A stretch of 53,813 nucleotides of DNA from Actinomycetota bacterium (GCA_038211015.1 JBBQVZ010000002.1:1-53813), one strand, 5' to 3'. Shown: positions 24,743 to 43,114, counted from the first letter of the stretch. The notes: generated from the letters alone by a model not told the origin. A program made the numbers and translations.

Positions 24743-25756
24743 ATGGCGACGATCTATTACGAGAAGGACGCCGATGCCGGCGCCCTCAGCGGGCAGAAGA
24801 TCGCGATCCTGGGCTTCGGCAGCCAGGGCCACGCGCACGCGCTGAACCTCCGAGACTCCGGGCACGACGTCCGCGTCGGTCTGCGTCCGGGTTCGTCGTC
24901 GCGGAAGGTCGCCGAGGACGCCGGCCTCCGGGTGCTCGATGTGGCCGACGCCGTGCGCGAGGCCGACGTCGTGATGGTGGTCCTGCCCGACACGGCGCAA
25001 TCCAAGGCGTTCGCCGACGAGATCGGACCGAACCTGGAGCCCGGCAACATGTTGATGTTCGCGCACGGGTTCAACATCCACTTCGGGACGATCGCGGCTC
25101 CCGAGGGCGTGGACGTCACGATGATCGCGCCGAAGGGGCCCGGCCATCTCGTCCGTAGGACGTACGAGCAGGGGATCGGGACGCCGGCGCTGATCGCCGT
25201 GCACCAGGACGCCACCGGCACGGCCCACGGGCGGGCGCTCGCGTACGCGGCAGGCATCGGCGCCGCGCGCGCAGGCGTGCTCGAGACGACGTTCAAAGAG
25301 GAGACCGAGACGGATCTCTTCGGCGAGCAGGCGGTGCTGTGCGGGGGTGCGTCCGCGCTGGTCCAGGCGGGCTTCGAGACGCTCGTCGCGGCCGGGTACC
25401 AGCCCGAGAGCGCGTACTTCGAGTGCCTGCACGAGCTGAAGCTGATCGTGGACATGATGTACGAGGGCGGCCTGTCGTGGATGCGCTACTCCATCTCCGA
25501 TACGGCCGAGTACGGCGACTACACCCGCGGGCCGCGGGTGATCAACACGGAGGTCCGCGCCGAGATGCGCCGGATCCTCGACGAGATCCAGGACGGAACG
25601 TTCGCCAAGGAATGGATCGCGGAAGCGGACGGGGGATTCACCAACTTCCTCCGACTTAGGCAGCAGGCGCGCACGTCCCAGCTCGAAGACGTGGGACGGG
25701 GGCTGCGCCAGATGATGCCCTGGTTGGAGAGCGACACAAAGGTGGTCCCGAAATGA
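24743..25756 (+). CDS. ilvC: ketol-acid reductoisomerase (class I)
   Basis: [21 protein letters not shown], 337 aa. Confidence 0.95.
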
Positions 25757-27321
25757 AGGAAGGCAACGTAGCCGACGGCAACACCGTACGGATCTTCGAC
25801 ACGACACTGAGAGATGGCGAGCAGGCTCCCGGCATCGCGCTCACGCGGGCCGAGAAGGTCGAGATCGCCGAGCAGCTGGCACGGCTGAACGTGGACATCC
25901 TCGAGGCCGGGTTCCCGGTCTCGTCGGAAGGTGAGTTCGACGCCGTGACCGAGATCGCGTCGAGCGTGCACGGCCCGGTGATCGCGGCCCTCGCGCGCAC
26001 CACCGAGGGAGACATCGTTCGCGCCGCGGAGGCCCTGAAGGGGGCCGAGAGCTGGCGGATCCACACGTTCATCTCGACGAGCCAGATCCACATGGAGGAC
26101 ATGCTCCGCATGTCGCACCGGCAGGTCCTGGACGCGATCAGGGACAACGTGAAGCTGGCGGTGAGCTACACCGACGACGTCGAGTTCTCGGCGCAGGACG
26201 CGACCCGGACCGAGCTGGACTTCCTGCTCGAGTGTTTCCGGGTCGCGGTGGAGTGCGGTGCGACGACGATCAACGTCCCCGACACGGTGGGGTACGCGAC
26301 GCCGACCGAGTTCGGGGAGCTGGTTCGCGTCGTCCGCGAGGCCACGCCCGACGACGTCGTGATCTCGACGCACTGCCACAACGACCTGGGCCTGGCCGTC
26401 GCGAACTCGCTGGCCGGGATCGAGAACGGCGCCCGGCAGGTCGAGGTCGCGGTGAACGGCATCGGCGAGCGGGCCGGCAACTGCGCCCTGGAGGAGATCG
26501 CCATGATCGTCCGCACGCGCGGGCAGGCGCTGGGCGTGACGCACGATCTCAACATCAAGGAGATCATCCGGACGTCGCGGCTCGTGTCCATGACGACCGG
26601 CTACAACGTGCAGCCGAACAAGTCGGTCGTGGGGGCCAGTGCGTTCGCGCACGAGAGCGGCATCCACCAGCACGGGGTGCTCAGCAACCGCGCGACGTAC
26701 GAGATCATGGACCCGCTCGCCGTCGGCCTGGAGGGCAACCGCCTGGTCCTCGGCAAGCACAGCGGACGGCACGCGTTCGTCGACGCGTTGGAGAAGATCG
26801 GCCTCACGGTCGACAAGGAGCACTTGGACCGTGCCTTCGCGCGCTTCAAGGACCTGGCCGACCGGAAGATCCAGATCACCGATCAGGACCTGGAGGCGAT
26901 CGTCGGCGAGGAGCGAGGCTCGGCAGAGGAGGGCGTTCTCGTGCTCGAGTCGCTCCAGGTCGGCGGCGGCACGCACCTCTCGCCGAGCGCCACGGTCCGG
27001 CTCCGGCGCGGCGACGAGGTGATCGAAGAGTCGGCGTTCGGCGACGGGATGATCGACGCCGCGTGCGGCGCGATCCAACGGGCCGCCGGGGTGGAGGCGA
27101 AGCTCATCCTGTTCAACGTGTCGTCGGTGACCGGCGGGTCCGACGCATTGGGCGACGTCGTCGTGCAGCTCGACGTCGACGGCCGGCGCGTGACCGGTCG
27201 AGGCGTGTCGGTGGACGTGGTGGAGGCGAGTGCCCGTGCCTACCTCGCGGCCATCAACCGTGCTCTGCGCGTCTCGGCCACCCAGGAGCCGGCGGAACCC
27301 GCCGCGGAGCTCACGCGGTGA
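25753..27321 (+). CDS. leuA: 2-isopropylmalate synthase
   Basis: ATGA overlap with ilv[29 protein letters not shown], and a C-terminal LeuA regulatory domain. Confidence 0.9.
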
Positions 27322-28373
27322 CCCACACGATCGGGGTGATCCCCGGTGACGGAACGGGCCCGGAGGTCGTCCGCGAGGGCCTGAAGGTCCTCGACGCCGT
27401 CCGGCAGGTGGAGGGGTTCCAGGTCGATCTCGTGGAGTTCGACCTGGGAGGGGAGCGGTTCCTGCGGACCGGCGAGACGCTCCCCGACGACGATCTCGCC
27501 CGTCTGCGACAGATGGACGCGATCTTCCTCGGCGCGGTCGGCCACCCCGACGTGAAACCGGGCATCCTCGAGCGTGACCTGTTGCTGCGGGCACGGTTCG
27601 AGCTGGACCAGTACGTGAACCTGCGGCCGATCGTGCGCTACCCCGGCGTGCAAACGCTGGTGCCGTCCCACGGCGAGGACGACGTGAACATGGTCGTCGT
27701 CCGAGAGAACTCCGAGGGCCTCTACAGCGGCGCGGGCGGCTTCCACCGCAAGGACACCGAGCACGAGGTGGCGGTGCAGGAGTCGATCAACACGCGCCAC
27801 GGCGTGGAGCGGATCGTGCGGTACGCGTTCGAGCTGGCGATGCGTCCCGACCGGCGCCGGAAGCTCACGCTCGTCCACAAGACGAACGTCCTGACGTTCG
27901 CCGGCGACCTGTATCAGCGGGTGGTGAACGAGGTAGCTACGGAGTTCCCGGATGTTCAGACGGACTACGTCCACGTGGACGCATGCTGCATCTACTTCCT
28001 GGATCAGCCCAGTCGCTTCGACGTGATCGTCACGGACAACATGTTCGGCGACATCATCACGGACCTCGGCGCCATGATCCAGGGCGGGATGGGGATCGCG
28101 GCGGGCGGCAACATCAACCCGGCCGGCGTGAGCATGTTCGAGCCGATCGGGGGCACTGCGCCCGATCACACCGGCAAGGGAACCATCAACCCGTTGGCCG
28201 CGATCGGCGCGGTGCAGATGCTGCTCGCGCAGCTCGGCGAGGACGGCGCGGCGGCTCGGGTCGCCGAGGGCATCCGGTTCGCGTGCATCAAGATGGAGTC
28301 GATGCGCGCAGGGGAGATGGGCTATCCCACGTCCGGCGTCGGCGATCTCGTCGTGGAGAGGGCGACGGCGTGA
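27318..28373 (+). CDS. leuB: 3-isopropylmalate dehydrogenase
   Basis: GTGA overlap with leu[14 protein letters not shown] and [12 protein letters not shown]. Confidence 0.9.
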
Positions 28374-29965
28374 CCACGACCGCCACGCGCCGGAAGGTGG
28401 AGCTCTACGACACGACGCTCCGCGACGGCGCGCAGCAGACCGGGCTGTCGTACTCCATCGAGGATCGCATGCGGATCCTCCACAAGATCGACCAGCTCGG
28501 CGTGCCGTTCATCGAAGGGGGGTGGCCGGGCGCGAACCCGCGTGACACCGAGTTCTTCAAGCTCGCGACGAAGGAGACGCTCCGGCACGCCGCGCTGACC
28601 TCGTTCGGCATGACGCGGAAGGCGGGCGAACGCGCGGAGGACAGCGCCGTCCTGCGCGAACTGCTGGATACCGGCACCGAGGTCGTGTGCATCGTGGGCA
28701 AGGCCTGGGACCTGCACGTGCGCGAGGCGCTGCGGACCGACCTCGACGAAGGGGTCGCCATGGTGCGCGATTCGATCGCGTTCCTGCGCAAGCAGGGACG
28801 CCGCGTGTTCTTCGACGCCGAGCATTTCTTCGACGGGTACGGCAGCGATCCCGCGTTCGCCATGCGCGTGGTCCTGGCGGCGGAGGAGGCCGGAGCGGAA
28901 CGGCTCGTCCTCTGCGACACGAACGGCGGGATGCTGCCGCTCGATGTCGCGCGGATCGTCGGCGAGGTCAACGCCCGGGTCGAAGCGGCGCTCGGCATCC
29001 ACGTCCACAACGATGCCGGGTGCGCGGTCGCGAACTCGCTGATCGCCGTGGAGCACGGCGTGTATCAGGTGCAGGGTGTGGTGAACGGCTACGGCGAGCG
29101 CACCGGCAACGCCGATCTGATCCCGATCGCCGCGAACCTGGTCCTCAAGATGGACGTCGACTGCCTGCCGGACGGCGCGGTCGAGCATCTGACCGAGGTC
29201 GCGCACTACGTCGCCGAGGTGGCGAACGTCGCCCCCGACTCGCACCAGCCGTACGCTGGCCGGTACGCGTTCACGCACAAGGCCGGACTGCACGCGAGCG
29301 GGATCGCCCGCCTGGAGGAAGCCTACGAGCACGTGAAGCCGTCGTCGGTGGGGAACCGACGCGGGGTGGTCGCGAGCGATCTGGGCGGCGCGGCCACGTT
29401 GCGTATGAAGGCCGACGAGTTCGGCGTCGAGATGCACGAAGGGGCGATCGCCGCGATCTTGGACGAGCTGAAGCAACGCGAGGCCCGCGGGTACACGTTC
29501 GAGGTCGCCGACGCCTCGCTCGAGCTGCTGATGCGGCGCGCGGGTGGCTGGGAACAGCCGTTCTTCACGATCGAGAGCTTCCGGGTGCACATCGAGCAGC
29601 GCATGGAGGACGCCGACGACGCACTCGCCGAGGCCACGGTCAAGGTCGTCACGAACGGCACCCGGCACATCGAGAGCGCCGAGGGCCACGGGCCGGTCGG
29701 GGCCCTCGACAACGCGCTCCGCAAGGCGCTCACGAACGAGTACCCGGCGCTCGACGACATGAACCTTGAGGACTACCGCGTCCGGGTGCTGGACGAGACC
29801 GTCGGGACAGGCGCGACCGTGCGCGTTCTGATCGACACGTCGAACGGCGAACGCGAATGGACCACCGTGGGCGTGTCGGAGAACATCATCGAGGCGTCGT
29901 GGGAGGCGCTCGTCGACTCGTACCTGTATGGACTGCTGCACCCGCGGGAGGATCAGCAGGCGTGA
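28370..29965 (+). CDS. cimA: (R)-citramalate synthase-type LeuA paralog
   Basis: GTGA overlap with leuB. VELYDTTLRDGAQQTGLSYSIEDRMRILHKIDQLGVPFIEGGWPGANPRDTEFF matches the CimA-type subfamily as I remember it. Substrate specificity cannot be read from sequence alone. Confidence 0.75.
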   Translation: MTTTATRRKVELYDTTLRDGAQQTGLSYSIEDRMRILHKIDQLGVPFIEGGWPGANPRDTEFFKLATKETLRHAALTSFGMTRKAGERAEDSAVLRELLDTGTEVVCIVGKAWDLHVREALRTDLDEGVAMVRDSIAFLRKQGRRVFFDAEHFFDGYGSDPAFAMRVVLAAEEAGAERLVLCDTNGGMLPLDVARIVGEVNARVEAALGIHVHNDAGCAVANSLIAVEHGVYQVQGVVNGYGERTGNADLIPIAANLVLKMDVDCLPDGAVEHLTEVAHYVAEVANVAPDSHQPYAGRYAFTHKAGLHASGIARLEEAYEHVKPSSVGNRRGVVASDLGGAATLRMKADEFGVEMHEGAIAAILDELKQREARGYTFEVADASLELLMRRAGGWEQPFFTIESFRVHIEQRMEDADDALAEATVKVVTNGTRHIESAEGHGPVGALDNALRKALTNEYPALDDMNLEDYRVRVLDETVGTGATVRVLIDTSNGEREWTTVGVSENIIEASWEALVDSYLYGLLHPREDQQA

Positions 29966-30486
29966 GCTCCGCGGGGGGCGTCGTCATCCGTGACGCGAAG
30001 CCATCCGAAGCCCGCGCGATCGCCGAGGTCAACGTCGCGTCGTGGCGTTGGGCGTATCGCGACGACCTTTCCGCCGAGCTCCTCGACGCCTTGTCGGTGG
30101 AGGACCGGGAGCGCGGGTGGAACGAGTGGCTCGCAGCTCGGCCCGGCGCCGCCACGCTGGTCGCCGAGGAAGGCGACCGCATCGTCGGCTTCTGCAGCGT
30201 GGCGCCGAGTGGCGATGAGGGCGCGAACGAACGTACGGCAGAGGTCCTCACGATCTACCTCCTGCCGGATGCCGCCGGCCGCGGGATCGGTCGCGACCTG
30301 TTCGCCTCCGCCGTCGATCGGCTCCGCACGTTGGGGTACGACCGGGCGACGCTCTGGGTGATGGCCTCGAACGACCGGAGCCGGCGCTTCTACGAGGCCG
30401 CCGGTTGGTCGTGGGACGGCACGACGAGCGAGCATCGCTTCGACTGCGCGAACCTGCCGATCGTCCGGTACGTGACCGACCTGTAG
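29962..30486 (+). CDS. GNAT-family N-acetyltransferase
   Basis: GTGA overlap with cimA. Acetyl-CoA motif AAGRGIGRDLF and C-terminal RRFYEAAGW. Confidence 0.8.
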   Translation: MSSAGGVVIRDAKPSEARAIAEVNVASWRWAYRDDLSAELLDALSVEDRERGWNEWLAARPGAATLVAEEGDRIVGFCSVAPSGDEGANERTAEVLTIYLLPDAAGRGIGRDLFASAVDRLRTLGYDRATLWVMASNDRSRRFYEAAGWSWDGTTSEHRFDCANLPIVRYVTDL

Positions 30487-31793: not shown

Positions 31794-34700
31794 CTACTGG
31801 CCCTGTGCGAGCGCTTCGACCTCGGCGTGCATCGCGTGGCGCTCCTCGAGCAGCGTACGCAACGCTCGCGGCGCGAGCGGCCTCGCGAAGAAGTAGCCCT
31901 GGCCCATGTCGCACTTGAGCTCCATGAGCCGCTCGAGCTGATCGGCCCGTTCGATGCCCTCTGCGACCGGTTTCAGGTTCAAGATGCCGGCCAGTTCGAT
32001 CACCGCGGCGGTGAGCGCGGACGATTCGCCGCCGTCGGCCACCTCGTCGATGAACGACTTGTCGATCTTGAGGATGTCGACCGGGAAGCGGCGGACGTAG
32101 TTGAGCGACGAGTAGCCCGTGCCGAAGTCGTCGATCGCGAGCAACACACCGAGCTCCTTCAGCTGGTTCAGACGCTCGATGGCGAGCTCCATGTCCTGCA
32201 TGACCATGCTCTCGGTGATCTCGAGGGTCAGGCTGGCCGCGGTCAGGCCGGTTTCGGTCAGGATGTCCCGCACCTCGTCCACGATCTCGGGGCGTGCCAG
32301 CTGCCGTGCGGAAAGGTTGACCGCCATGTGGAACGGCGGGTCCATGGGGAACTCGCTCTGGAGGTCCACCGTGTAGCGGCACGCTTCGCGGAGCACCCAG
32401 CGGCCGATCGGTACGATCAATCCCGTCTCCTCGGCGAGCGGGATGAACTCGAGCGGTTGCACGATCCCGCGGTCGGGGTGGATCCAGCGGATCAGGGCCT
32501 CGACGCCGGTGATCCTTCCCGAATCCAGCTCGATCACCGGCTGGTAGTGGAGGATGAACTCCTCATGCTCGAGCGCGCGCTGAAGGTCGGCCTTCAGCTC
32601 CAAGCGTCGCAGTGCCGTGTCGTGCATCGCAGGCTCGAAGACCTGATACCGACCCTTGCCCTTCTCCTTGGCCATGTACATCGCGACGTCCGCGTTGCGC
32701 ATGAGCGCCTCGGCCGCCTCCTCCTCGCCACCCTCGCCGGCCTCTTCCGAGACGGCGATGCCGACGCTCGCGCGGACGAACACCTCCTTGCCCTCCAGCG
32801 AGAACGGCTCCTCGAGCATCTGCATGATCCGCTCGGCGACGTCTGCGGCTTGGATCCCTTCTCCGCCGTCCTCCAGGAGGATCGCGAACTCGTCGCCACC
32901 GAGGCGCGCGGCCGTGTCGGCCGCTCGGAGCGCCTTCCGCAGCCGCTCGCCGACCTCCAGCAGGAGACCGTCGCCGGCGGCATGTCCCAACGAGTCGTTG
33001 ATCGTCTTGAAGTCGTCGATGTCCATGAACAGCACCGCGATCGGTTTGTGGTCGCGCTCCTGCCGTTCGATGGCGTGCAGCACGCGATCGCGGAACAGTG
33101 CCCGGTTCGCGAGATTGGTGATGGGGTCGTGGAAGGCCTGGTGCTGCAGTTGCTCCTCGAACTGCTTGCGTTCCGTGATGTCACGCGTGTTGAGGACGAT
33201 GCCCTTCACGTTGGGGTCGTGCAGCAGGCTCGTCCGCAGGGTCTCGGTGGCCAGGTAGGTCCCATCCCGGTGACGAAGGCGGAACTCCAGCAGCGCCGTG
33301 TCGCCTTCGCCGTCGCCAGCCGACGTCAGGAACGAGAGCACGCGCGTCTTGTCGTCCTGACGGACCAGGTCGATGAACCGCGTGCCCTCGAGCTCCTCGG
33401 GGCCCGATCCGAGCAGGCGTGACGCGGACGGGCTCGCGTAGCGGATCACGGTGGTCGGCTCGATGACCGTGACCACGTCCGACGAGTTCTTGACCAGGGA
33501 TGCGAACCGCGCCTCGCTCTGTTGGATGAGGAGATCCTCGGTGAGCGCCGCGCTCTCGAGCGCGAGCGCGACCTGCGACGAGAGCGCTCGGAGGCTGTCG
33601 GAAACGGAGGCGGGCATCTCTTGCGTGGTCGCGATCACCATCATGCCGCGGAACTCGTCGCGCATGAACAGCGGCGCAACCAACACGGAGCCCTCGACAT
33701 CGTGAGGGAGCAGGAGCGGCTTGCCGATCGTGCTCTCGTGCGATTGCACGACGTAGGCATCGCGGTCCAACAACCGCTGGCGTTTCCAATCCTGCAGGAT
33801 GTCGAGCGAGAATCGACGTCCGATCACGCCGGTCGCTTCGCCGTCGGCGGCTACCACGACGAAATCGTTCGGTCCGTCGTCGGACTCCTCGCACAGGCGG
33901 ATCGCCGCGTCCTCGCCCGCCAGGGCTCGTGCGGCGTCGATCGCGGCTTCGTGGATCGCCTGTCGGTTCGTCGCCGTCACGAGCGCGACGCCGACCTCGC
34001 GCAGCGCGCGTTCGCGTCCCGCCGACTTCTCCTGCTGACGGACGAGGCCGGACATCCTGGCGATCACGAGAAGGAAGAGGATGATCGAGGCGACGATCAC
34101 CACGAGCTGGTCGGTGCGTTGGGTGCCGGTCGAATACCGGCTCACGATGATCGCGTCGGTGAGAGGGGCGGTCAGCGACACCACCGCGAGGGCGGCGAGA
34201 CGGGTCCGGGACAGGCGGCCCTTCGTGTCGGTGGAGCGTTGCGAGAACGAGCGCACCGCGGGGTGCAGCGCCGCGGCGCCGAACAGCAGGTAGAACGCGG
34301 CCCACCCTCCCTCCAGGTAGCCCGTCTGGTTGTCGTATCCGCCATGGAGGCCGAACCATCCGTACATTGCGTCGGTCACGAAGAGCGCGATGACGGCGGC
34401 GAGCAGGAAGTAGAACGCCTGGTTCTTCTTGCCTCTGCCGACGGCGAGCCTGATGGCCCCGGTCACGAGCATGAGGTCCATCAAGGGGTATCCCATGGAC
34501 ACGAGCTTCTGCACGGTCGTGAGGGTCGTGTCGTGCGTGTACGGCGCGATCAGGAAGACCCACGACAACACGCCGACGCCGATGCCGACGATCAGCGAGT
34601 CGATGGCTCCGTCGCGGTCACGACCGGGATTCCGATGGCGGATCAACAACAGGATGCCGAGGAACAAGCAAGGGTAGACCGACAGATACAAGACGTCGCC

Positions 34701-34973
34701 GATCGACGGGTACGGCAGCTCCGTTCCGAAGAGCCGGTCGTAGTTGTACGTGATGACGTCTCCGGCCACGAAGAAGACCTGGCCCAACGCGATCAGGACC
34801 CACGGCAGCTTGTACTCGACGCGGTTGAGCCGAAGGGCCACCAGGATCACGACCGGAGACGACAGCGCGATGAGGTTCAACAGCCCACCGACGCGCATGC
34901 CGGGCACGAACAAGAAGACCAGGGTCGCGATCACCCCGGTCAGTAGATACACGAGCCATGCCCGCGCCCTCAT
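31794..34973 (-). CDS. membrane sensor / GAF / PAS / GGDEF / EAL protein (c-di-GMP turnover)
   Basis: Track ORF 31794..35648, trimmed to ATG 34973 (MRARAWLVYLL...). About 330 aa of polytopic membrane module, then a GAF-like region, PAS, an intact RLGGDEF motif and EAL blocks (EALIRW, DDFGTGYSSLNYV). Confidence 0.9.
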   Translation of the reverse strand: MRARAWLVYLLTGVIATLVFLFVPGMRVGGLLNLIALSSPVVILVALRLNRVEYKLPWVLIALGQVFFVAGDVITYNYDRLFGTELPYPSIGDVLYLSVYPCLFLGILLLIRHRNPGRDRDGAIDSLIVGIGVGVLSWVFLIAPYTHDTTLTTVQKLVSMGYPLMDLMLVTGAIRLAVGRGKKNQAFYFLLAAVIALFVTDAMYGWFGLHGGYDNQTGYLEGGWAAFYLLFGAAALHPAVRSFSQRSTDTKGRLSRTRLAALAVVSLTAPLTDAIIVSRYSTGTQRTDQLVVIVASIILFLLVIARMSGLVRQQEKSAGRERALREVGVALVTATNRQAIHEAAIDAARALAGEDAAIRLCEESDDGPNDFVVVAADGEATGVIGRRFSLDILQDWKRQRLLDRDAYVVQSHESTIGKPLLLPHDVEGSVLVAPLFMRDEFRGMMVIATTQEMPASVSDSLRALSSQVALALESAALTEDLLIQQSEARFASLVKNSSDVVTVIEPTTVIRYASPSASRLLGSGPEELEGTRFIDLVRQDDKTRVLSFLTSAGDGEGDTALLEFRLRHRDGTYLATETLRTSLLHDPNVKGIVLNTRDITERKQFEEQLQHQAFHDPITNLANRALFRDRVLHAIERQERDHKPIAVLFMDIDDFKTINDSLGHAAGDGLLLEVGERLRKALRAADTAARLGGDEFAILLEDGGEGIQAADVAERIMQMLEEPFSLEGKEVFVRASVGIAVSEEAGEGGEEEAAEALMRNADVAMYMAKEKGKGRYQVFEPAMHDTALRRLELKADLQRALEHEEFILHYQPVIELDSGRITGVEALIRWIHPDRGIVQPLEFIPLAEETGLIVPIGRWVLREACRYTVDLQSEFPMDPPFHMAVNLSARQLARPEIVDEVRDILTETGLTAASLTLEITESMVMQDMELAIERLNQLKELGVLLAIDDFGTGYSSLNYVRRFPVDILKIDKSFIDEVADGGESSALTAAVIELAGILNLKPVAEGIERADQLERLMELKCDMGQGYFFARPLAPRALRTLLEERHAMHAEVEALAQGQ

Positions 34974-35005
34974 GGCATGTGTATCGTCCGGCGGAGTGGC
35001 CAGCC

Positions 35006-36361
35006 TTAGACCGAAGGTTCTGGCGGCGGCGTCGGCCGTATGGGGGAGGCCGAACGCCCCACGACCTCGAGTTCCGGCGTGTCGTCGGGATGAGCCCCCT
35101 CCACGGAGCGCATGCCGGGAAGGAACAGGAACGACAGCGTCACGATCGCCCCGAGAACGCCGGCACCGATCAGGGTGTGCCGCGCGCCGAACAGGTTGGC
35201 GGCCGGTCCGGTCAGCGCGAACGACAGCGGAAGCAATCCGATCGAGATGAACCAGTCCAGGCTCGACACCCGCCCGAGCAGGTGGCGCGGCACGAGGCGC
35301 TGCTTGGTCGTCACCCAGACGATGGTTCCAGCAGTCTCGAGCGCGTTGAACAGGAAGCATGCGAGCATCGCCTGCCACGGAACGTGCGCCAGGCCGTAGC
35401 CGGCGACCGCGAGGGTCGACAAGGTCCACGCGATGTACATGAACGTGATGAATCGGCGCGGGGTCCCGCGCCGTCCCATGAACAAGGCTGCGCCGATCGC
35501 GCCGACCCCGCCCATCGCGAGGATGAATCCCAGGCTCAACGGGTTGCCTCCCCACCGGTCCTTCACGAGGAGCGGCAGCAACACCTCTTGCGGCCCGATG
35601 AACAACAGATAGGCGAACGCGGCGGCCAGCAACGTCCCCCACAACCACACCCGCTCACGCACGAAGCGGAATCCCTCTCGAACCTCGGCGAACGCCGTCG
35701 TGTGGGCACCTTTCGGCGGCGCTGCGATCGGGTGCGGGCTCATGAGCAGCAGCGCCACGATCGATATCCCGAACGTGGCGGCGTCGACCAGGAAGGCGCC
35801 GCCGGTGCTCCAGGCGACCAGGAACCCACCGAGCGCGGGTCCGGCGAGCCGCCACGCCGCAGGCCGCACGAACTGGTCCAGCGCGTTGGCTTGGATCAGC
35901 AGGTCGGTGGCCACCAGGTCGGGCACGATCGCGTCGAACGCCGGGCCGAAGAACGCGGTCCCTCCGCCGTAGAAGGCGGCGAGCACCATGAGGTGCCACA
36001 GCTCGAGATGTCCGGTCAGCGAGAGCACCCCCATCGCGCCCACGGCCACTCCGCGGATGAGGTCGGCGGCGATCAGGACCCGTCGTCGATCGAAACGATC
36101 GCTCACCACGCCCCCGATCAAGAGGAACAAGACGTTGGGGATCGTCATGGCCAAGCCCACGAGTGAGAGCGCCGTCGGTGCGTCCGAGAGCTGGTAGACC
36201 TGCCAGGCCAAAGAGACGATGAAGATCCCGTCCCCGACGAGAGACACGGTCATGCCCGACCAGAGCAGCCGGAAGTCCCGGTGCTTGAGCGGTTCGAAGA
36301 TGACGGGACGCCGTCGGCCCGACGGCCCCCCGCTCCCTCTCGGGTCGCGTTTCATCCCCAT
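35006..36361 (-). CDS. MFS transporter
   Basis: 451 aa with about 12 hydrophobic segments. N-terminal FRLLWSGMTVSLVGDG...VVSDRFDRRRV is typical of EntS-like MFS proteins. Confidence 0.85.
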   Translation of the reverse strand: MGMKRDPRGSGGPSGRRRPVIFEPLKHRDFRLLWSGMTVSLVGDGIFIVSLAWQVYQLSDAPTALSLVGLAMTIPNVLFLLIGGVVSDRFDRRRVLIAADLIRGVAVGAMGVLSLTGHLELWHLMVLAAFYGGGTAFFGPAFDAIVPDLVATDLLIQANALDQFVRPAAWRLAGPALGGFLVAWSTGGAFLVDAATFGISIVALLLMSPHPIAAPPKGAHTTAFAEVREGFRFVRERVWLWGTLLAAAFAYLLFIGPQEVLLPLLVKDRWGGNPLSLGFILAMGGVGAIGAALFMGRRGTPRRFITFMYIAWTLSTLAVAGYGLAHVPWQAMLACFLFNALETAGTIVWVTTKQRLVPRHLLGRVSSLDWFISIGLLPLSFALTGPAANLFGARHTLIGAGVLGAIVTLSFLFLPGMRSVEGAHPDDTPELEVVGRSASPIRPTPPPEPSV

Positions 36362-36421
36362 CGATTCGGTATCGGAGGCCGCGATGGGCTGCTTGACCCG
36401 CCACGGCCGCCCATGGCTACG

Positions 36422-37162
36422 TCAGATGGTCCCATCCGGTCGGTCGGACGATGGGGTGCCCGATGGGCCGAGCGCGATCAGCTCGCCGCGCAATAGTTGT
36501 CGGATGGCCGTCGTTCCTGAGAGCTCGGCGGTCCTCGGATGAGACGAGATCGCCTCTTCCAGATCCTCGGCTGCCACGGTGAGTGGGGCGCGGCGCCGGC
36601 GCACGTCCGCCGCGCGCACGGCCTCGACGGCGGCCGCGTACGCCTCGCTCGCCGCCTCCTGTTGTCCGTTCGCGAGCAACGAGAGGGCGAGGTCGAACAG
36701 CACCGAGATCCTTCCGGGAACGCGCTCCAGCGAGGCATGGAAGGACTGGATCGCCTCGTCCAGACGTCCCAGCCGGTAGAGGCTCCACCCCCGGAACTCC
36801 AAGCTTCGAGGCCGGTCGCCCAATGACTCCGAGACTTCCTCGGCCACGTCGCGGTAGAGGCGCTCGGCCACGACCTTGCGGCCGGCTCGATGATGCAGGT
36901 CCGCGAGCGCCGTTCGGGGCCATGACGCGGTGGCGTCAAGCGAGATCGCCGCTTCGTAGATCGCTCGGGCGTCGTCGAGATGCTGCTCGCCGAGGTTCTC
37001 GAGTGCCCACGCGTGGATCGTCTGTGCGAGCGCGTTGTTCGGCTCGAGCTCGATGGCGAGTACCGCGGTCTCGGCAGCCGTCGCATAGTCCGCGAGCTCG
37101 GTCAGCTCGCACGCGCGTCGGATCAGGTCGGACGCGCGACCTTCATCGGGCTCAGACACCAT
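36422..37162 (-). CDS. tetratricopeptide-repeat protein
   Basis: Track ORF 36422..37612, trimmed to ATG 37162. Repeated A-x-x-x-Y/A helical pairs (...DDARAIYEAAISLD..., ...RLDEAIQSFHASLE..., ...QQEAASEAYAAAVE...). Confidence 0.65.
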   Translation of the reverse strand: MVSEPDEGRASDLIRRACELTELADYATAAETAVLAIELEPNNALAQTIHAWALENLGEQHLDDARAIYEAAISLDATASWPRTALADLHHRAGRKVVAERLYRDVAEEVSESLGDRPRSLEFRGWSLYRLGRLDEAIQSFHASLERVPGRISVLFDLALSLLANGQQEAASEAYAAAVEAVRAADVRRRRAPLTVAAEDLEEAISSHPRTAELSGTTAIRQLLRGELIALGPSGTPSSDRPDGTI

Positions 37163-37275
37163 GCGCTCGCGTTCGGTTCGCCCTTCGGAGGCCGTACCGG
37201 TGGTCGGCGTTGGAATCGTACCCGGTCGCAGGTGGGGAGCAAGCAAAGGTCGGTTGCCTGGACCGGCAACGGCGT

Positions 37276-39459
37276 CTAGCCGATGTGGGAGACGTCCGGC
37301 GCCGCCCGGACGAGTGTTCCGTCCGGCGCAAGGTCTTCGAGCGACTCGTCCGACGCCGAGGCGAACGGGAGGTACACGTGGAACGAAGCACCGCCGCCCT
37401 CGCGCTCCTCGACCCACGCACGTCCACCGTGGAGTTCGGCGAAGCGCGTGACGAGCGAGAGCCCGATCCCGACGCCCGGGTTGTGCGTCACGACCTCGTT
37501 CCCCTGACGGAACGGCTCGAAGATCGAGCCCCGCAACTCCTCGGGGATCCCCGGGCCTGCATCCTCGACGACGATGAGCACCCCTTCCGCGTCGCCCGTC
37601 GCGCGCACCCATATCGGCGTGCCCGCCGGGGTGTAGCGGATGGCGTTCGCGACGAGGTTCTCGACGATCCGCTCGACCTGGGCGGCGTCGACGTTGGCGT
37701 GCACCGGGCCGACGGACGTGAGCTCGATGGGGTGCGTCTCGGTCGAGCTTTCCTCCAGCACGCTGGACAGGATCTGGATCACGTCGACGTCGTCGCGGTT
37801 GGGGGCAACGATCCCACGGCTCATCCGATCGAGATCGAGCAGGTTCGTCAGCAGGCGGTGGAGCTTCCTGGCGTTCGTCGCGATCCGGCCCACAAGGTCG
37901 TGCTCGTCCTCACGGGAGATCTGATCCTTGTCCAGGCTTCCCTCGAGGGTCAGGGCGCACCCCAGGATGCTCGTGAGGGGCGTCCGGAGGTCGTGCGAGA
38001 CGGCCTGGAGGAAGGAGTTCTGCATCTCGTGCAGGGCACGCAATCTGGTGGCCGCTTCCTTCTCGGTGGCCAGCGCTTTCACGAGCTGAGCCTCCGCGTT
38101 CTTCTGCTCGGTCACGTCGTACATCACGCCCTGGAGGTAGAGGGGACGGCCGCCGTCGTCGGCGAGCGCCTCGGCCTCTTCGTGGATCCAGATGACCCGG
38201 CCGTTCTTGCCGATGATGCGGTACTCGCAATGCATGCGCGGTTCGCCGTTCAAGATGCGCAGCTCGGCATCGAGGGCCAGCTCTCGATCCTCGGGCAGGA
38301 TCCGCTCGCGCCACAGGTCGGCTTGGCCGGTCCACTCGTCGGGCGTGAACCCCAGGATGGATTCGACCTTCGGGCTGATGTAGGTCCACGCCGCGTCCTT
38401 GCCGAACTCGGCGATGTAGACGACCGCGGGAAGACCCTCGACGAGGGATCGGTACTTGGCCTCTGCCTCTCGCATCTGTCGTTCGGTCCGTCGGTAGTCG
38501 CCGACGTCGACCATCAGTCCGTTGAGTCGGACCAGGACGAGGACGAACAGCAAGGCCGAGCATCCCGCGAGCACCGGGACGTCGACCTGCTCGCCGCGCA
38601 GCGCCTGGATCACCTCGACGGTGGGGGCGATCAAGGAGGCACCCGCGAGCACGGCCAGGCGTCTGCGCGGGTGTTGGAGGTCGCCCTCGGGCGTCGGCTC
38701 GTCCAGGTCGGCCATCGACGCGTGGAGGGCGGCCGCGCCCCACAACAGATAGAAGAGCCCCCATCCGAGCTCGAGCAGGCCGGTGGTGTTGTCGTACGTC
38801 CCATGCAGGAGGATCAGCGTGTAGATCGTGTCGGTTGTGAACAGCACGGCCACGGATCCCGCCATCAGGTAGAAGGCCGGTGGGCGCTTCCCGCGGTCGA
38901 CCGCGAGCCGGACGGCCACGCCGAACAGGAGCAGGTCCATGATCGGATAGGCCATGGCGGTCAACTTCTGCACGAGCGTCAGAGATTGGTCGTGCGCGTA
39001 CGGCGCAAGCAGGAACACCCAAGACAGCGTGCCGACGCCGACGGCGATGATCAGGGAGTCGATCAGGCTGGCGCGGTCGCGACCCGGGCTTCGGCGTCGA
39101 GCCAACAGCAGGACACCAGCGATCAGGAAGGGGTAGACGCTCAGGTAGAAGAGATCGCCGAGCGACGGGAACGGCGGCGTGTTTCCGAAGAATCGCTCGT
39201 AGTTGTACGTGATCACGTCGCCGGCCACGAAGAGCGCCTGGCCGACCGCGACCAGGTACCAGGGCAAACGCTGTCGGGGCTCGTGGACCCTCGCCGCGAT
39301 CACCATCGCCACGGAGGCCGAGAGACCGATGACGTTGAACAGCGGGCCCACCCGGATCGGGTGCACGAACACGAAGGCCGTCAGAACGGCTCCGCCGATC
39401 GAGAGGTAGATGGCCCACACCCGAGATCTCATCGCTTCATCGGTATCGGGCGGGGTCAT
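37276..39459 (-). CDS. sensor histidine kinase with polytopic membrane module and PAS domain
   Basis: H-box AVSHDLRTPLTSI, N-box LVANAIRYT, G-boxes VEDAGPGIP and GVGIGLSLV. The N-terminal membrane region is paralogous to that of 31794..34973. Confidence 0.9.
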   Translation of the reverse strand: MTPPDTDEAMRSRVWAIYLSIGGAVLTAFVFVHPIRVGPLFNVIGLSASVAMVIAARVHEPRQRLPWYLVAVGQALFVAGDVITYNYERFFGNTPPFPSLGDLFYLSVYPFLIAGVLLLARRRSPGRDRASLIDSLIIAVGVGTLSWVFLLAPYAHDQSLTLVQKLTAMAYPIMDLLLFGVAVRLAVDRGKRPPAFYLMAGSVAVLFTTDTIYTLILLHGTYDNTTGLLELGWGLFYLLWGAAALHASMADLDEPTPEGDLQHPRRRLAVLAGASLIAPTVEVIQALRGEQVDVPVLAGCSALLFVLVLVRLNGLMVDVGDYRRTERQMREAEAKYRSLVEGLPAVVYIAEFGKDAAWTYISPKVESILGFTPDEWTGQADLWRERILPEDRELALDAELRILNGEPRMHCEYRIIGKNGRVIWIHEEAEALADDGGRPLYLQGVMYDVTEQKNAEAQLVKALATEKEAATRLRALHEMQNSFLQAVSHDLRTPLTSILGCALTLEGSLDKDQISREDEHDLVGRIATNARKLHRLLTNLLDLDRMSRGIVAPNRDDVDVIQILSSVLEESSTETHPIELTSVGPVHANVDAAQVERIVENLVANAIRYTPAGTPIWVRATGDAEGVLIVVEDAGPGIPEELRGSIFEPFRQGNEVVTHNPGVGIGLSLVTRFAELHGGRAWVEEREGGGASFHVYLPFASASDESLEDLAPDGTLVRAAPDVSHIG

Positions 39460-39523: not shown

Positions 39524-40891
39524 CTAAGCGGATGCGGCGACGGCCTGACGGAGCTGGAAACGCTCACGTAGTGACCCGAAGACGTCGATCAGGTGATCGA
39601 CCTCTTCATCCGTGTTGGCGGCGGTGACCTGGACCCGGAAACCCACCTCGTCCTTCGGGACCAGTGGGTAGGCCGCCATCGTGGTGTAGATGCCCTCGTC
39701 GAACAGGTACCGACCGACCTGGTCGATCTCCGTGTGATCGGCGAGCGGCACCTCGATGATGGGGAAGCCGCTCTCGTTCGGCGTCACGATGCCGAGCCTT
39801 CCCAGCGCGTCGAGCACGCGGTGTGTTCGCTGCCAGATCGCGAAGCGAGCAACGTCGCCGCGCGTGCGGTTCACGTCGAGTCCGGCGATCGTCGTCGCGA
39901 GCGACGCGACGGGCGACGGGCCCGAGTAGAGGTAGGGAGGAGCCAGGACCTTGAGTGCGTCCTTGAGCCTGGTCGGAAGGGCGACGAACGCCAGCAGCGA
40001 CGAATAGGCCTTGGAGAACCCCGCTACCAGCACGACGTTGTCGTACCCAACGTCGCAGTGGCGCAGCAGGCTGTTGCCCGAGGTTCCGTAGTCGCAGAGC
40101 TCGTTCGGCGAGCGTTCGCCGATCACGCCGAAGCCGTGTGCGTCGTCCACGTACAGCAGGGCCTCGTGCACGTTCGCCAGGTGGGCGAACGCCGCGATGT
40201 CCGGTGCGTTGCCGGTCATCGAGTTCACGCCGTCCATCGCGATCACGCGTGGTTGCTCAGGGTCGCTGGCGGCGAGCAGCTCTTCCAGATGCGCGACGTC
40301 GTTGTGCCGGAACCTGACCACCTGCGCGCCGTGACCCACCGCGACCATCGCGCCGTCGTAGATCGTCTTGTGCGCTCTGCCGTCGAGGAACACCGTGCCG
40401 CAGCCCACCAGGACGGGGATCACGGACATGTGGATGTGGGTGATCGTGGGAAGGAGCATGACGTCCTCGCACGCCAGCAGGTCGGCCATCTGCTCCTCGA
40501 TCTCTTGGTAGAGGCGCGGACTGCCGAGGAGTCGGGACCAGCTGGGGTGGGTGCCCCACGCCGCCAGGTACTCAGGAACGGCGGCGATGATCTCCTCGTC
40601 GAGATCGAATCCCAGGTAGTTGCACGACGCCCAGTCCGTGAGCCAGCGATCGCCGATCCGGATCCGGCGCCCGATCTGCTCGTCGATGACCGCGTCGACC
40701 ATCGGGTGTTCGTCCTTCAGGCGCGTCAGATCTGCGGTGGTGGCGATCCATCGGTCCAGCCATCCGTCGGCCTGGCGACGCCGGGGCTTTCCACCCGAGG
40801 GCGATCCCACGACCAGGTCGGACTCGCGCCTGTGGACGCGCGAATCGGCCCCGTTCGAGCGGGCTCCGGTTCCTGAGGGGGAGTCGGTCAT
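39524..40891 (-). CDS. alpha-oxoamine synthase family PLP enzyme (KBL/AONS/serine-palmitoyltransferase-like)
   Basis: NYLGFD, YVDDAHGFGV, and the PLP lysine in GFSKAYSS. It has a roughly 90-aa basic N-terminal extension. Confidence 0.8.
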   Translation of the reverse strand: MTDSPSGTGARSNGADSRVHRRESDLVVGSPSGGKPRRRQADGWLDRWIATTADLTRLKDEHPMVDAVIDEQIGRRIRIGDRWLTDWASCNYLGFDLDEEIIAAVPEYLAAWGTHPSWSRLLGSPRLYQEIEEQMADLLACEDVMLLPTITHIHMSVIPVLVGCGTVFLDGRAHKTIYDGAMVAVGHGAQVVRFRHNDVAHLEELLAASDPEQPRVIAMDGVNSMTGNAPDIAAFAHLANVHEALLYVDDAHGFGVIGERSPNELCDYGTSGNSLLRHCDVGYDNVVLVAGFSKAYSSLLAFVALPTRLKDALKVLAPPYLYSGPSPVASLATTIAGLDVNRTRGDVARFAIWQRTHRVLDALGRLGIVTPNESGFPIIEVPLADHTEIDQVGRYLFDEGIYTTMAAYPLVPKDEVGFRVQVTAANTDEEVDHLIDVFGSLRERFQLRQAVAASA

Positions 40892-42106: not shown

Positions 42107-43114
42107 ATGGCATACAAACGGATCCTGTTCGGTACGGATGGCTCGGCGTCGGCGCAGATCGCCGGCGCCGTTGCCGCCGCGCTCGCGAAGGCGGGTGGGG
42201 CGCAGCTGTTCGTGGGGTTCGCGTTCGAGCGGCCGACCGACGCGGAGCAGATCGTGGCGACGGCGGTTCAGCAGGCGGAAGCGGCAGGCGTTCGCCGCGT
42301 TTCGGGCGAGGCCCGGGCGGGAGTGCCGGCCGACGCGCTGATCGCGCTCGCCGACGGATACGACGTCGGGCTGGTTGTCGTCTCGGGAGGGCGGGGCAAG
42401 AAGTACGGGCTGGGACAGGTGGCGCACCGGCTGGCCGTCCGCTCGCCGCGTGACGTCCTGTTGGTGTCGGGTTCGTCCACAGCGGGATCCGACGAGCCGC
42501 TGTACCGGCGGGTCTTGATCGCCACGGACGGGTCCTCCACCGCCGATCGGGCGGCGCGGAAGGGATTCGAGCTGGCGGAGGTGTTGGAGGCGCCCGTCAC
42601 GATCGTCTTCGTCGGACATCCGAAGACCGGGGAGCTCATCACCCAGGACACCATCGCGACGTACGCAGGGGAGGTGAAGACCGAGGTGCTCCTGCGCGAG
42701 GGCGACCCGGCGGCGCAGATCCTCGCCGCAGCCGACGATGTCGACGCCGGGCTCGTCGTCGTGGGTAACAAGGGCATGATCGGAGCCAAGGGGTTCCTCT
42801 TGGGGTCCGTGCCGCAGGAGGTCAGCGAGCGCGCGACCCGCGATGTCTTGATCGCCCGGACGGTGACACAGGTCGTCTCCGAGCTCGCTTCCGGAGAGGG
42901 TGGCATCGTGGAACGCGCGGGCGAGAAGCTCGCGGTCTACATGGGAGAGGATGGCGAGCCCCACGTGATGAGCGCCCGATGCACGCACATGGGTTGCACG
43001 GTGGCGTGGAACCCGGGGGAGAGAACGTTCGACTGCCCCTGCCACGGATCGCGTTTCGCCCCGACCGGTGAAGTCGTGAACGGACCGGCGGCGCGGCCGT
43101 TGCCCCCCGCGTGA
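42107..43114 (+). CDS. tandem universal-stress-protein domains fused to a C-terminal Rieske [2Fe-2S] domain
   Basis: ATG 42107 follows GGAGGT. Two USP units (ILFGTDGS... and VLIATDGS...VVVGNKGM...GSV), then CTHMGC...CPCHGSRF. Confidence 0.8.
   Translation: MAYKRILFGTDGSASAQIAGAVAAALAKAGGAQLFVGFAFERPTDAEQIVATAVQQAEAAGVRRVSGEARAGVPADALIALADGYDVGLVVVSGGRGKKYGLGQVAHRLAVRSPRDVLLVSGSSTAGSDEPLYRRVLIATDGSSTADRAARKGFELAEVLEAPVTIVFVGHPKTGELITQDTIATYAGEVKTEVLLREGDPAAQILAAADDVDAGLVVVGNKGMIGAKGFLLGSVPQEVSERATRDVLIARTVTQVVSELASGEGGIVERAGEKLAVYMGEDGEPHVMSARCTHMGCTVAWNPGERTFDCPCHGSRFAPTGEVVNGPAARPLPPA

Follow-up and report, generated by a model that had tools for sequence, protein, structure and literature searches.

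Paralogous copies of a putative ten-helix membrane sensor domain at the head of a histidine kinase and a GGDEF-EAL protein in an actinobacterial synthase-exporter cassette

The DNA analysed here is a stretch of 53,813 nucleotides from an Actinomycetota bacterium (GCA_038211015.1 JBBQVZ010000002.1:1-53813), hereafter called the window, whose base composition (about 67% GC) is of the actinobacterial, high-GC type. On its minus strand, from position 42117 down to 30494, seven genes follow one another in a single run with gaps of 32-113 bp, in the order SerC, an aminotransferase resembling the alpha-oxoamine synthases (AOS), a sensor histidine kinase, a TPR protein, an MFS_3 transporter of the major facilitator superfamily (MFS), a GGDEF-EAL protein and a D-Ala-D-Ala carboxypeptidase. 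The kinase and the GGDEF-EAL protein, 4 kb apart, begin with the same membrane module of about 330 residues, and the present work concerns this module, its relatives and the genes that accompany it. Intergenic terminators and sigma-70 promoters were not detected above chance as operon signals.

The kinase (727 aa, 37276..39459, minus strand), delimited by its open reading frame (ORF) and by Pfam, consists of the module with its ten predicted transmembrane helices (10-TM) followed by PAS_3 (residues 360-446), HisKA (480-548) and HATPase_c (591-700) domains. Its H-box, SHDLRTP, lies at residue 489, and the N, G1 (DAGPG) and G2 boxes are also intact. The module copy occupies residues 10-322 (38494..39432, minus strand) according to BLASTP and AlphaFold. 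The second protein, a putative diguanylate cyclase/phosphodiesterase (DGC/PDE) of cyclic di-GMP (c-di-GMP) turnover (1059 aa, 31794..34973, minus strand), carries its copy at residues 1-315 (34029..34973, minus strand; BLASTP and tblastn), and Pfam places behind it a GAF_3/GAF region at about 340-473 (sub-threshold), PAS (489-604), GGDEF (613-774) and EAL (795-1032). Its start is most likely at 34973 (MRARAW), because the longer ORF runs into the upstream MFS gene. Since the GGDEF motif, the RxxD site (RAAD) five residues upstream of it, and the EAL, DDFGTG, KIDKS and EGIE motifs are all intact, both cyclase and phosphodiesterase activities are possible for this protein.

When the full proteins were compared by BLASTP, one colinear high-scoring segment pair was obtained, which joins residues 10-331 of the kinase to residues 1-326 of the DGC/PDE with 162 identities over 326 positions (50%), 4 gap positions, 315 bits and an E-value of 3e-98. 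An earlier note, made by a model from the sequence alone, had announced this shared module of about 330 residues, and its reading was right in the coordinates, in the hand-aligned core of 93 residues (kinase 65-157 versus DGC/PDE 56-148), where exactly 63 identities were counted, and in the divergence of the two tails behind the module, which the Pfam domains given above bear out. The similarity extends to the shared blocks GWGLFYLLWGAAALH / GWAAFYLLFGAAALH at kinase 232 and DGC/PDE 223. The same note had held that its proposal would fall if only generic hydrophobic helices were shared. After 100 composition-preserving shuffles of one module the score was 18.4 +/- 2.5 bits (maximum 25.8), to be compared with 309 bits for the real pair, and since the real score lies so far above the shuffles, the similarity is not one of generic hydrophobicity. 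The two modules are homologous, and a tblastn search of the window recovers these two copies and no third.

Kinase residues 1-330 were modelled with AlphaFold from an alignment, with a mean local confidence (pLDDT) of 93 and a global score (pTM) of 0.89, as a bundle of ten long helices whose connecting loops have 5-21 residues. This integral-membrane, multi-helix build with no folded extracytoplasmic domain is also what hydropathy and loop charges indicate. As the number of helices is even and the outputs lie in the cytoplasm, the module is predicted to begin and end there. In agreement with this N-in/C-in topology, the loops obey the positive-inside rule, with 2, 5, 3 and 3 Lys/Arg residues after TM2, TM4, TM6 and TM8, respectively, and 0-1 in the putative outer loops. 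The last helix passes unbroken into the cytoplasmic linker and the output domains. A profile of 23 modules found no relative among the sequences of the PDB, and Foldseek returned no PDB chain at E<=0.001 for the module model; 7-TM receptors and rhodopsins, considered as fold relatives, gave only partial overlaps (E>=0.078, query-normalised TM-score <=0.40) and were discarded.

The near-invariant residues of the family, mostly polar or aromatic, lie within helices and include, in kinase numbering, W67, G80-D81, Y85/Y87, P98-S99, D102, Y105 and Y109-P110, to which are added D128, I133-D134, W147, P153, Y171-P172, D175, R184, D210, W233, R267 and the motif G241-AAALH246-x-SM. Among them D81, D102, D134, D175, D210, R184 and H246, together with several Trp and Tyr, are identical in the two window copies. 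The predicted topology would place D81, D102, D175 and D210 in that half of TM3, TM4, TM6 and TM7 which spans the outer leaflet. The earlier proposal that charged or polar residues within the helices could form a ligand site agrees with the position of GD81 and D134, which are intrahelical and family-wide, and less well with that of PGRDR: because the predicted topology places this motif in the cytoplasmic TM4-TM5 loop, an element of the positive-inside topology or of coupling is more likely here than a ligand site. An internal duplication of the module was also considered and rejected, the comparison of its N-terminal and C-terminal halves by hhalign being non-significant (E 0.018, probability 2.5%). 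In the kinase module (38494-39432) this alignment superposes TM2-TM3(GD)-TM4 on TM6-TM7(TD)-TM8, a hint, without significance, of an ancient 4+4 helix repeat.

Relatives of the module are numerous. A word-indexed search returned 166 of them, none with a Pfam annotation on the module, and with tails of PAS/HisKA, HisKA_3/HATPase, GGDEF or GAF types. When 1.84 billion cluster representatives (50%-identity clusters) were searched exhaustively with a profile, 14,980 matched at E<=1e-3, 9,785 at <=1e-10 and 2,850 at <=1e-30; because about 50 linker positions are included in the profile, the last figure is taken as a safe lower bound of the family. In 54 full-length representatives the outputs are GGDEF in 25 (19 with EAL) and HATPase_c in 21 (HisKA in 17, HisKA_3 in 5), with REC in 6 and Hpt in 2. 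One and the same domain is thus found on HisKA, HisKA_3, hybrid REC-Hpt, GGDEF, GGDEF-EAL and HD_5(HD-GYP)-GAF-GGDEF outputs, and the module is, as expected for a sensor domain, a real and recurrent domain paired with many outputs. PAS or GAF domains follow it in most members, and in many others it is joined directly to HisKA, HisKA_3 or GGDEF without either of them.

The 80 closest genomic loci belong nearly all to uncultured Actinomycetota, among them metagenome-assembled genomes (MAGs) of Solirubrobacterales, Gaiellales and Thermoleophilia-like bacteria. More distant homologues were reached by tblastn against plasmids: a module-PAS-GGDEF-EAL protein of Kitasatospora (38% identity), a module-HD_5-GAF-GGDEF protein of Deinococcus (hhalign probability 97.6) and, in the archaeon Haladaptatus, a kinase with a shortened module (hhalign probability 99.0). 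Additional members occur in Streptomyces, Streptosporangiaceae, Nocardiopsaceae, Pseudonocardiales and Acidimicrobiia, and the family as a whole is mainly actinobacterial. Several public gene calls of the family are fused or misnamed (P0142, P0257, P0381): P0142 fuses the C-terminus of an aminotransferase to a kinase module, P0257 is a fusion of two c-di-GMP proteins, and many other high-GC entries are truncated or frameshifted. A Kitasatospora module protein bears the name 'aminotransferase class I/II, partial' with no such gene nearby, apparently an annotation artefact.

The genes that accompany the module are conserved in a way that the earlier note had missed. When the window proteins were compared by tblastn with 80 related loci, picked as the closest relatives and therefore not independent samples, an AOS-like gene stood beside a module protein in 64 of them, an MFS gene in 55 and both in 51, and the other neighbours of the window were seldom kept (LeuA in 7, PepS13 in 5, SerC in 2). 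Six of the 16 loci counted without a synthase have less than 2 kb upstream of the module, where its presence cannot be judged. The gene order of the window, AOS-HK-(TPR)-MFS-DGC (HK, histidine kinase; DGC, module cyclase), is found in L001, L004, L006, L008, L017 and L024, and other loci show AOS-TPR-MFS-DGC, AOS-DGC-MFS, AOS-DGC or, in one case, a divergent arrangement. In two loci (L062 and L079) the genes beyond the AOS-DGC-MFS trio are unrelated to each other and to those of the window. The TPR gene is present in only some of the related cassettes and is weakly conserved (33-63% identity). At least 7 loci retain a kinase and a cyclase gene side by side, with 60-91% module identity. From these gene contents we read the conserved unit as the synthase, the sensor-GGDEF-EAL protein and the exporter, and the kinase as an addition in a subset of loci that includes the window. 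Five cassettes of clearly actinobacterial type (L004, L027, L076, L077 and L078; AOS 60-77% identical) stand in MAGs that bear the labels Velamenicoccus, Planctomycetaceae, Binatia, Pseudomonadota or Acidobacteriota; binning or labelling errors are the likely cause, or else horizontal transfer of the cassette.

The synthase of the window (455 aa, 39524..40891, minus strand) lies 64 bp upstream of the kinase. It carries the Pfam domain Aminotran_1_2 (PF00155) with the lysine motif GFSKA of pyridoxal phosphate (PLP) enzymes and a DDAH motif, and its best PDB sequence matches are the AOS/KBL structures 7poa/8s1y (E 1e-41) and serine palmitoyltransferases (SPT; E 1e-32), with ALAS and BioF also matched. 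By these motifs and matches it is a genuine AOS-family PLP enzyme, and it stays under every NCBIfam equivalog cut-off (bioF 185/426 bits, SPT 170/500, the CqsA-type model NF005526 84.5/428; KBL also below). Its orthogroup comprises 6,889 matches at E<=1e-20, the top 120 of them 72-88% identical, and is labelled '8-amino-7-oxononanoate synthase' in the sources despite a score of 185 bits versus 426 for the BioF equivalog. In two loci reached from the synthase side (L084, 9398-10231; L085, 9362-10180) a short-chain dehydrogenase/ketoreductase gene stands between the AOS and the sensor-GGDEF-EAL genes, at the place taken in the window by the kinase, TPR and MFS genes; this neighbourhood would be consistent with the reduction of an aminoketone product to an amino-alcohol, as in sphingoid-base synthesis. 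The transporter (451 aa, 35006..36361, minus strand; Pfam MFS_3 and MFS_1) lies 32 bp upstream of the DGC/PDE gene and is of the MFS_3 efflux type; its NCBIfam matches, Tet(V)-like and EntS-like, are all below cut-off. The TPR-repeat protein (246 aa, 36422..37162, minus strand), recognised by Pfam TPR matches, starts at MVSEPDEG and is encoded between the kinase and the MFS gene.

Outside this run the window holds, on the plus strand, two paralogous genes of the HMGL-like/LeuA_dimer type (25753-27321 and 27983-29965, about 660 bp apart), of the 2-isopropylmalate or homocitrate synthase kind. A GNAT acetyltransferase gene (29857-30486) follows the second one, and several relatives keep this GNAT-LeuA pair in synteny with the cyclase gene. 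No tRNA gene was found in the 53.8 kb window and no Rfam family reached its gathering threshold.

Distance trees were built from 86 modules, among which 24 cyclase-type modules come from AOS...MFS-DGC cassettes. The kinase-type modules cluster with the cyclase-type modules of the cassettes with a bootstrap of 0.60. Clean monophyly of the kinase-type modules, seen in a neighbour-joining tree with BLOSUM distances, was not retained, its bootstrap being only 0.17 with Kimura distances. Mean identity is 0.65 among kinase-type modules and 0.66 among cyclase-type modules, 0.56 between the two types and 0.47-0.48 between either type and the other cyclases. It follows that the kinase sensor most likely derives from a duplication of the cyclase sensor of the cassette itself, which is an old event and no recent local copy. 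In L006 (2083 versus 5649) and L008 (2353 versus 6001) the kinase module has 66-67% identity to its local cyclase counterpart, much more than the 50% of the window pair, and resembles kinase modules from elsewhere to the same degree; this may come from gene conversion between the neighbouring genes, from slower divergence or from independent duplications. Across the 86 modules 66 positions are at least 90% conserved and none of the 66 differs between the kinase and cyclase types, the only consistent discriminators being L309V and M316V, which lie in TM10 and border on the linker to the output domains. This is in keeping with a sensing core that stayed the same and a coupling that was retuned.

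We take the homology, the class of fold, the size of the family, the diversity of outputs and the conservation of the cassette as shown, and they lead us to the reading that a single membrane-embedded sensor domain is present in both proteins as paralogous copies, and we estimate the probability of this explanation as a whole at about 0.6. We infer from the same data a sensing function, a cue common to both proteins and a candidate for this cue, with decreasing strength. The module is very probably a signal-input domain, because of its promiscuity towards outputs, the conserved polar residues predicted to be buried in it and the helical continuity into the output domains. That the two window proteins respond to one intramembrane cue, or to two very similar ones, is slightly favoured, because of the residues they share and of the co-retention of the kinase and cyclase genes. 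That the neighbouring synthase would supply this cue as a lipophilic product, and the MFS pump transport it, is suggested by the conservation of the cassette, and we regard it as a tentative proposal of low probability.

Under this proposal the cue would be a lipophilic alpha-aminoketone or amino-alcohol, made by the synthase (at times together with an adjacent reductase) and released by the MFS pump. The cluster of Asp residues towards the outer leaflet in TM3, TM4, TM6 and TM7 would hold the amine of the cue inside the bilayer. The GGDEF-EAL protein would convert the membrane cue into a change in c-di-GMP, and loci with the paralogous kinase would have a phosphorelay branch as well, in which phosphotransfer would be to a response regulator encoded elsewhere; no REC domain or gene was detectable by tblastn in the window. 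That the AOS-like enzyme, the MFS pump and the 10-TM sensors of soil Actinomycetota would make up a small-molecule signalling cassette complete in itself is a speculation to which we give a low probability.

The earlier note had proposed that one signal is routed in parallel into both outputs. This proposal is plausible; it gains from the co-retention in at least 7 loci and from the 66 conserved positions, all common to both types, and loses from the 50% identity of the window pair and from the cytoplasmic sensors that each protein also possesses (the PAS domain of the kinase, the GAF-PAS of the DGC/PDE). Several other points weigh against the reading that we prefer. The conserved Asp residues are placed by predicted topology, a cavity common to them is putative, and ligand binding by the module is a candidate function. 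The synthase neighbour is absent beside the Kitasatospora and Streptomyces homologues, the synthase link being confined to one clade. The AOS enzyme scores higher on the BioF, SPT and KBL models than on the CqsA-type model, and the conservation of the synthase at 72-88% would also be expected of a housekeeping enzyme of lipid or cofactor metabolism. Finally, the SerC...AOS...DGC-PepS13-GNAT-LeuA synteny is shared with some relatives and may reflect lineage inertia.

These points can be assembled into another explanation, in which the modules sense different cues after their duplication, the synthase and the exporter are unrelated metabolic genes held by lineage synteny, and the cue is a general membrane property (lipid order, proton motive force, pH or a cation). 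An identity of just 50% leaves room for different specificities, a very conserved synthase and the wider SerC...LeuA synteny of some relatives would be expected, family members outside the clade do have no synthase neighbour, and the conserved Asp, His and Arg within the helices would also suit the sensing of protons or cations. However, all highly conserved intramembrane residues are common to the two types and only two TM10 positions differ, and the AOS-sensor-MFS trio outlasts changes in gene order and full replacement of the flanks, for which inertia gives no explanation. We hold this explanation as possible, though clearly on the unlikely side.

Returning to the reading of one shared sensor domain, the question is whether this domain already has a name. 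Neither Pfam nor NCBIfam has a model on the module in either window protein at E<=1, and scans of 54 representatives and of three distant homologues with these libraries left the module equally without a named domain. The MASE1-5, MHYT, 5TMR-LYT and 7TMR-DISM domains are long-standing Pfam families, and about 60 relatives were scanned for them besides the window proteins. No Pfam match to MASE1-4, MHYT, 5TMR-LYT or 7TMR-DISM was obtained for the window proteins (E<=1), for the 54 representatives (E<=0.01) or for three distant homologues (E<=0.1). The sole hint is a kinase orthologue, P0123, which gives 22.2 bits and E 1.4e-4 against MASE5 (PF17178), below the gathering cut-off of 25.2 bits that no scanned member reaches; its residues 57-177 (TM3-TM6) align to positions 3-117 of the 192 of the profile. 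The failure to place the module among MASE, MHYT, 5TMR-LYT and 7TMR-DISM, reported in the earlier note, is in agreement with these scans, nothing being above threshold.

The match to MASE5 points to a possible remote link and not to membership. It could nevertheless be argued that the module is a divergent, extended member of MASE5 that current models miss, in which case 'unnamed' may turn into 'distant MASE5 relative': the aligned part corresponds to TM3-TM6, the most conserved core of the module, and its E-value is about ten-fold better than those of other spurious membrane matches in the same scans (YhhN and DUF4231, E about 3e-3). Against this, MASE5 is matched by 1 of about 60 scanned members, is absent from the window proteins (E<=1) and from the Kitasatospora, Deinococcus and Haladaptatus homologues (E<=0.1), and has a model of 192 positions, 60% of it aligned, versus about 310 in the module, and weak membrane-protein matches of this kind are often compositional. 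We consider such membership improbable. The module is an uncurated MASE-like sensor domain family, set apart from MASE9-12 by their descriptions only, and as the MASE6-12 models may be partly absent from the library used, identity with one of them is possible. It is still less probable that the 10-TM region is mainly a transporter, or an anchor or dimerisation scaffold that leaves the sensing to PAS and GAF: ten helices with charged residues inside, the PAS/GAF domains that follow in most members and the precedent of Streptomyces RmdB, whose TM region reportedly can matter for protein stability (PMC13232838), would suit it, but no transporter model of Pfam or NCBIfam and no transporter fold matches, the best Foldseek hits being those given above (E 0.078, TM-score <=0.40), an anchor would not keep about 30 near-invariant polar or aromatic residues at an overall identity of about 30-40% up to the archaeal homologue, and the many members without PAS or GAF between the module and HisKA, HisKA_3 or GGDEF weigh against it.

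Membrane-embedded inputs of kinases and c-di-GMP enzymes are common, and their cues are mostly unexplained. Here, annotation pipelines leave about 300 residues blank in thousands of sequence clusters with a confident predicted fold, and a clade-specific cassette with a synthase and an exporter offers a concrete, testable ligand candidate. The cassette also shows how one membrane cue might control a phosphorelay and a second-messenger output. In the case where the synthase link is incidental, a solid new domain family worth curating remains.

Among known systems, the closest in kind are the MASE domains, MASE1-MASE12 (Galperin and co-workers, bioRxiv 10.1101/2021.11.05.467447). Like them, the module is polytopic and poor in loops, stands N-terminal to exchangeable HK, GGDEF, EAL or HD-GYP outputs and has conserved aromatic and charged residues within its helices, and it follows the same one-input-many-outputs logic that was used to define the MASE families. 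Unlike them, it has ten full helices over about 310 aa, no named MASE model at threshold and its own motif set (W67, GD81, D102-x2-Y-x3-YP, IDS134, YPxxD175, D210, GAAALHPSM). The HD-GYP survey that defined MASE9-12 gives 6-8 segments for MASE9-11 and states that many more undefined membrane domains exist (10.1101/2021.11.05.467447). The module was compared with the MASE9-MASE12 prototypes (TM1467, VC1295, SO1387 and Bas0914) by description only, and their features (6-8 segments, two short hairpin helices, HAMP after MASE10, a MASE12 restricted to Bacillales) do not fit it. With MHYT, 5TMR-LYT and 7TMR-DISM it has in common a multi-helix membrane input that serves both kinases and c-di-GMP enzymes, and it differs from them in helix number and motifs, with no Pfam match.

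In Streptomyces venezuelae, CdgC and CdgF are membrane-bound c-di-GMP enzymes described as '10TM-PAS-PAC-GGDEF-(deg)EAL' (PMC6205966). By description they resemble the module proteins, with ten predicted helices ahead of PAS-GGDEF-EAL, and Kitasatospora and some Streptomyces module homologues share this architecture. Matches to the module seemed scattered among Streptomyces, a genus in which CdgC is nearly universal.

The cassette itself can be compared with a signalling system. The CqsA/CqsS and LqsA/LqsS pairs carry out alpha-hydroxyketone quorum sensing in Vibrio and Legionella. The parts of the window differ from these in several respects: the synthase is not a CqsA equivalog (84.5 bits versus 428), the sensor has ten helices and not six, the kinase is a non-hybrid without REC whose membrane region no NCBIfam kinase model matches, the core partner is mostly the GGDEF-EAL protein, and the cassette includes an MFS exporter. 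The organisation is nevertheless alike, with a gene of the AOS family beside a polytopic membrane sensor kinase without a large extracellular domain, the synthase gene being adjacent to a polytopic sensor both in the window (64 bp gap) and in 64/80 loci, and by analogy with CqsA/CqsS a lipophilic product would be sensed within the membrane. If the proposed link between synthase and sensor is true, an autoinducer logic of the CqsA/CqsS kind would have been built from unrelated sensor parts, and a MASE-type domain would have gained a concrete candidate ligand.

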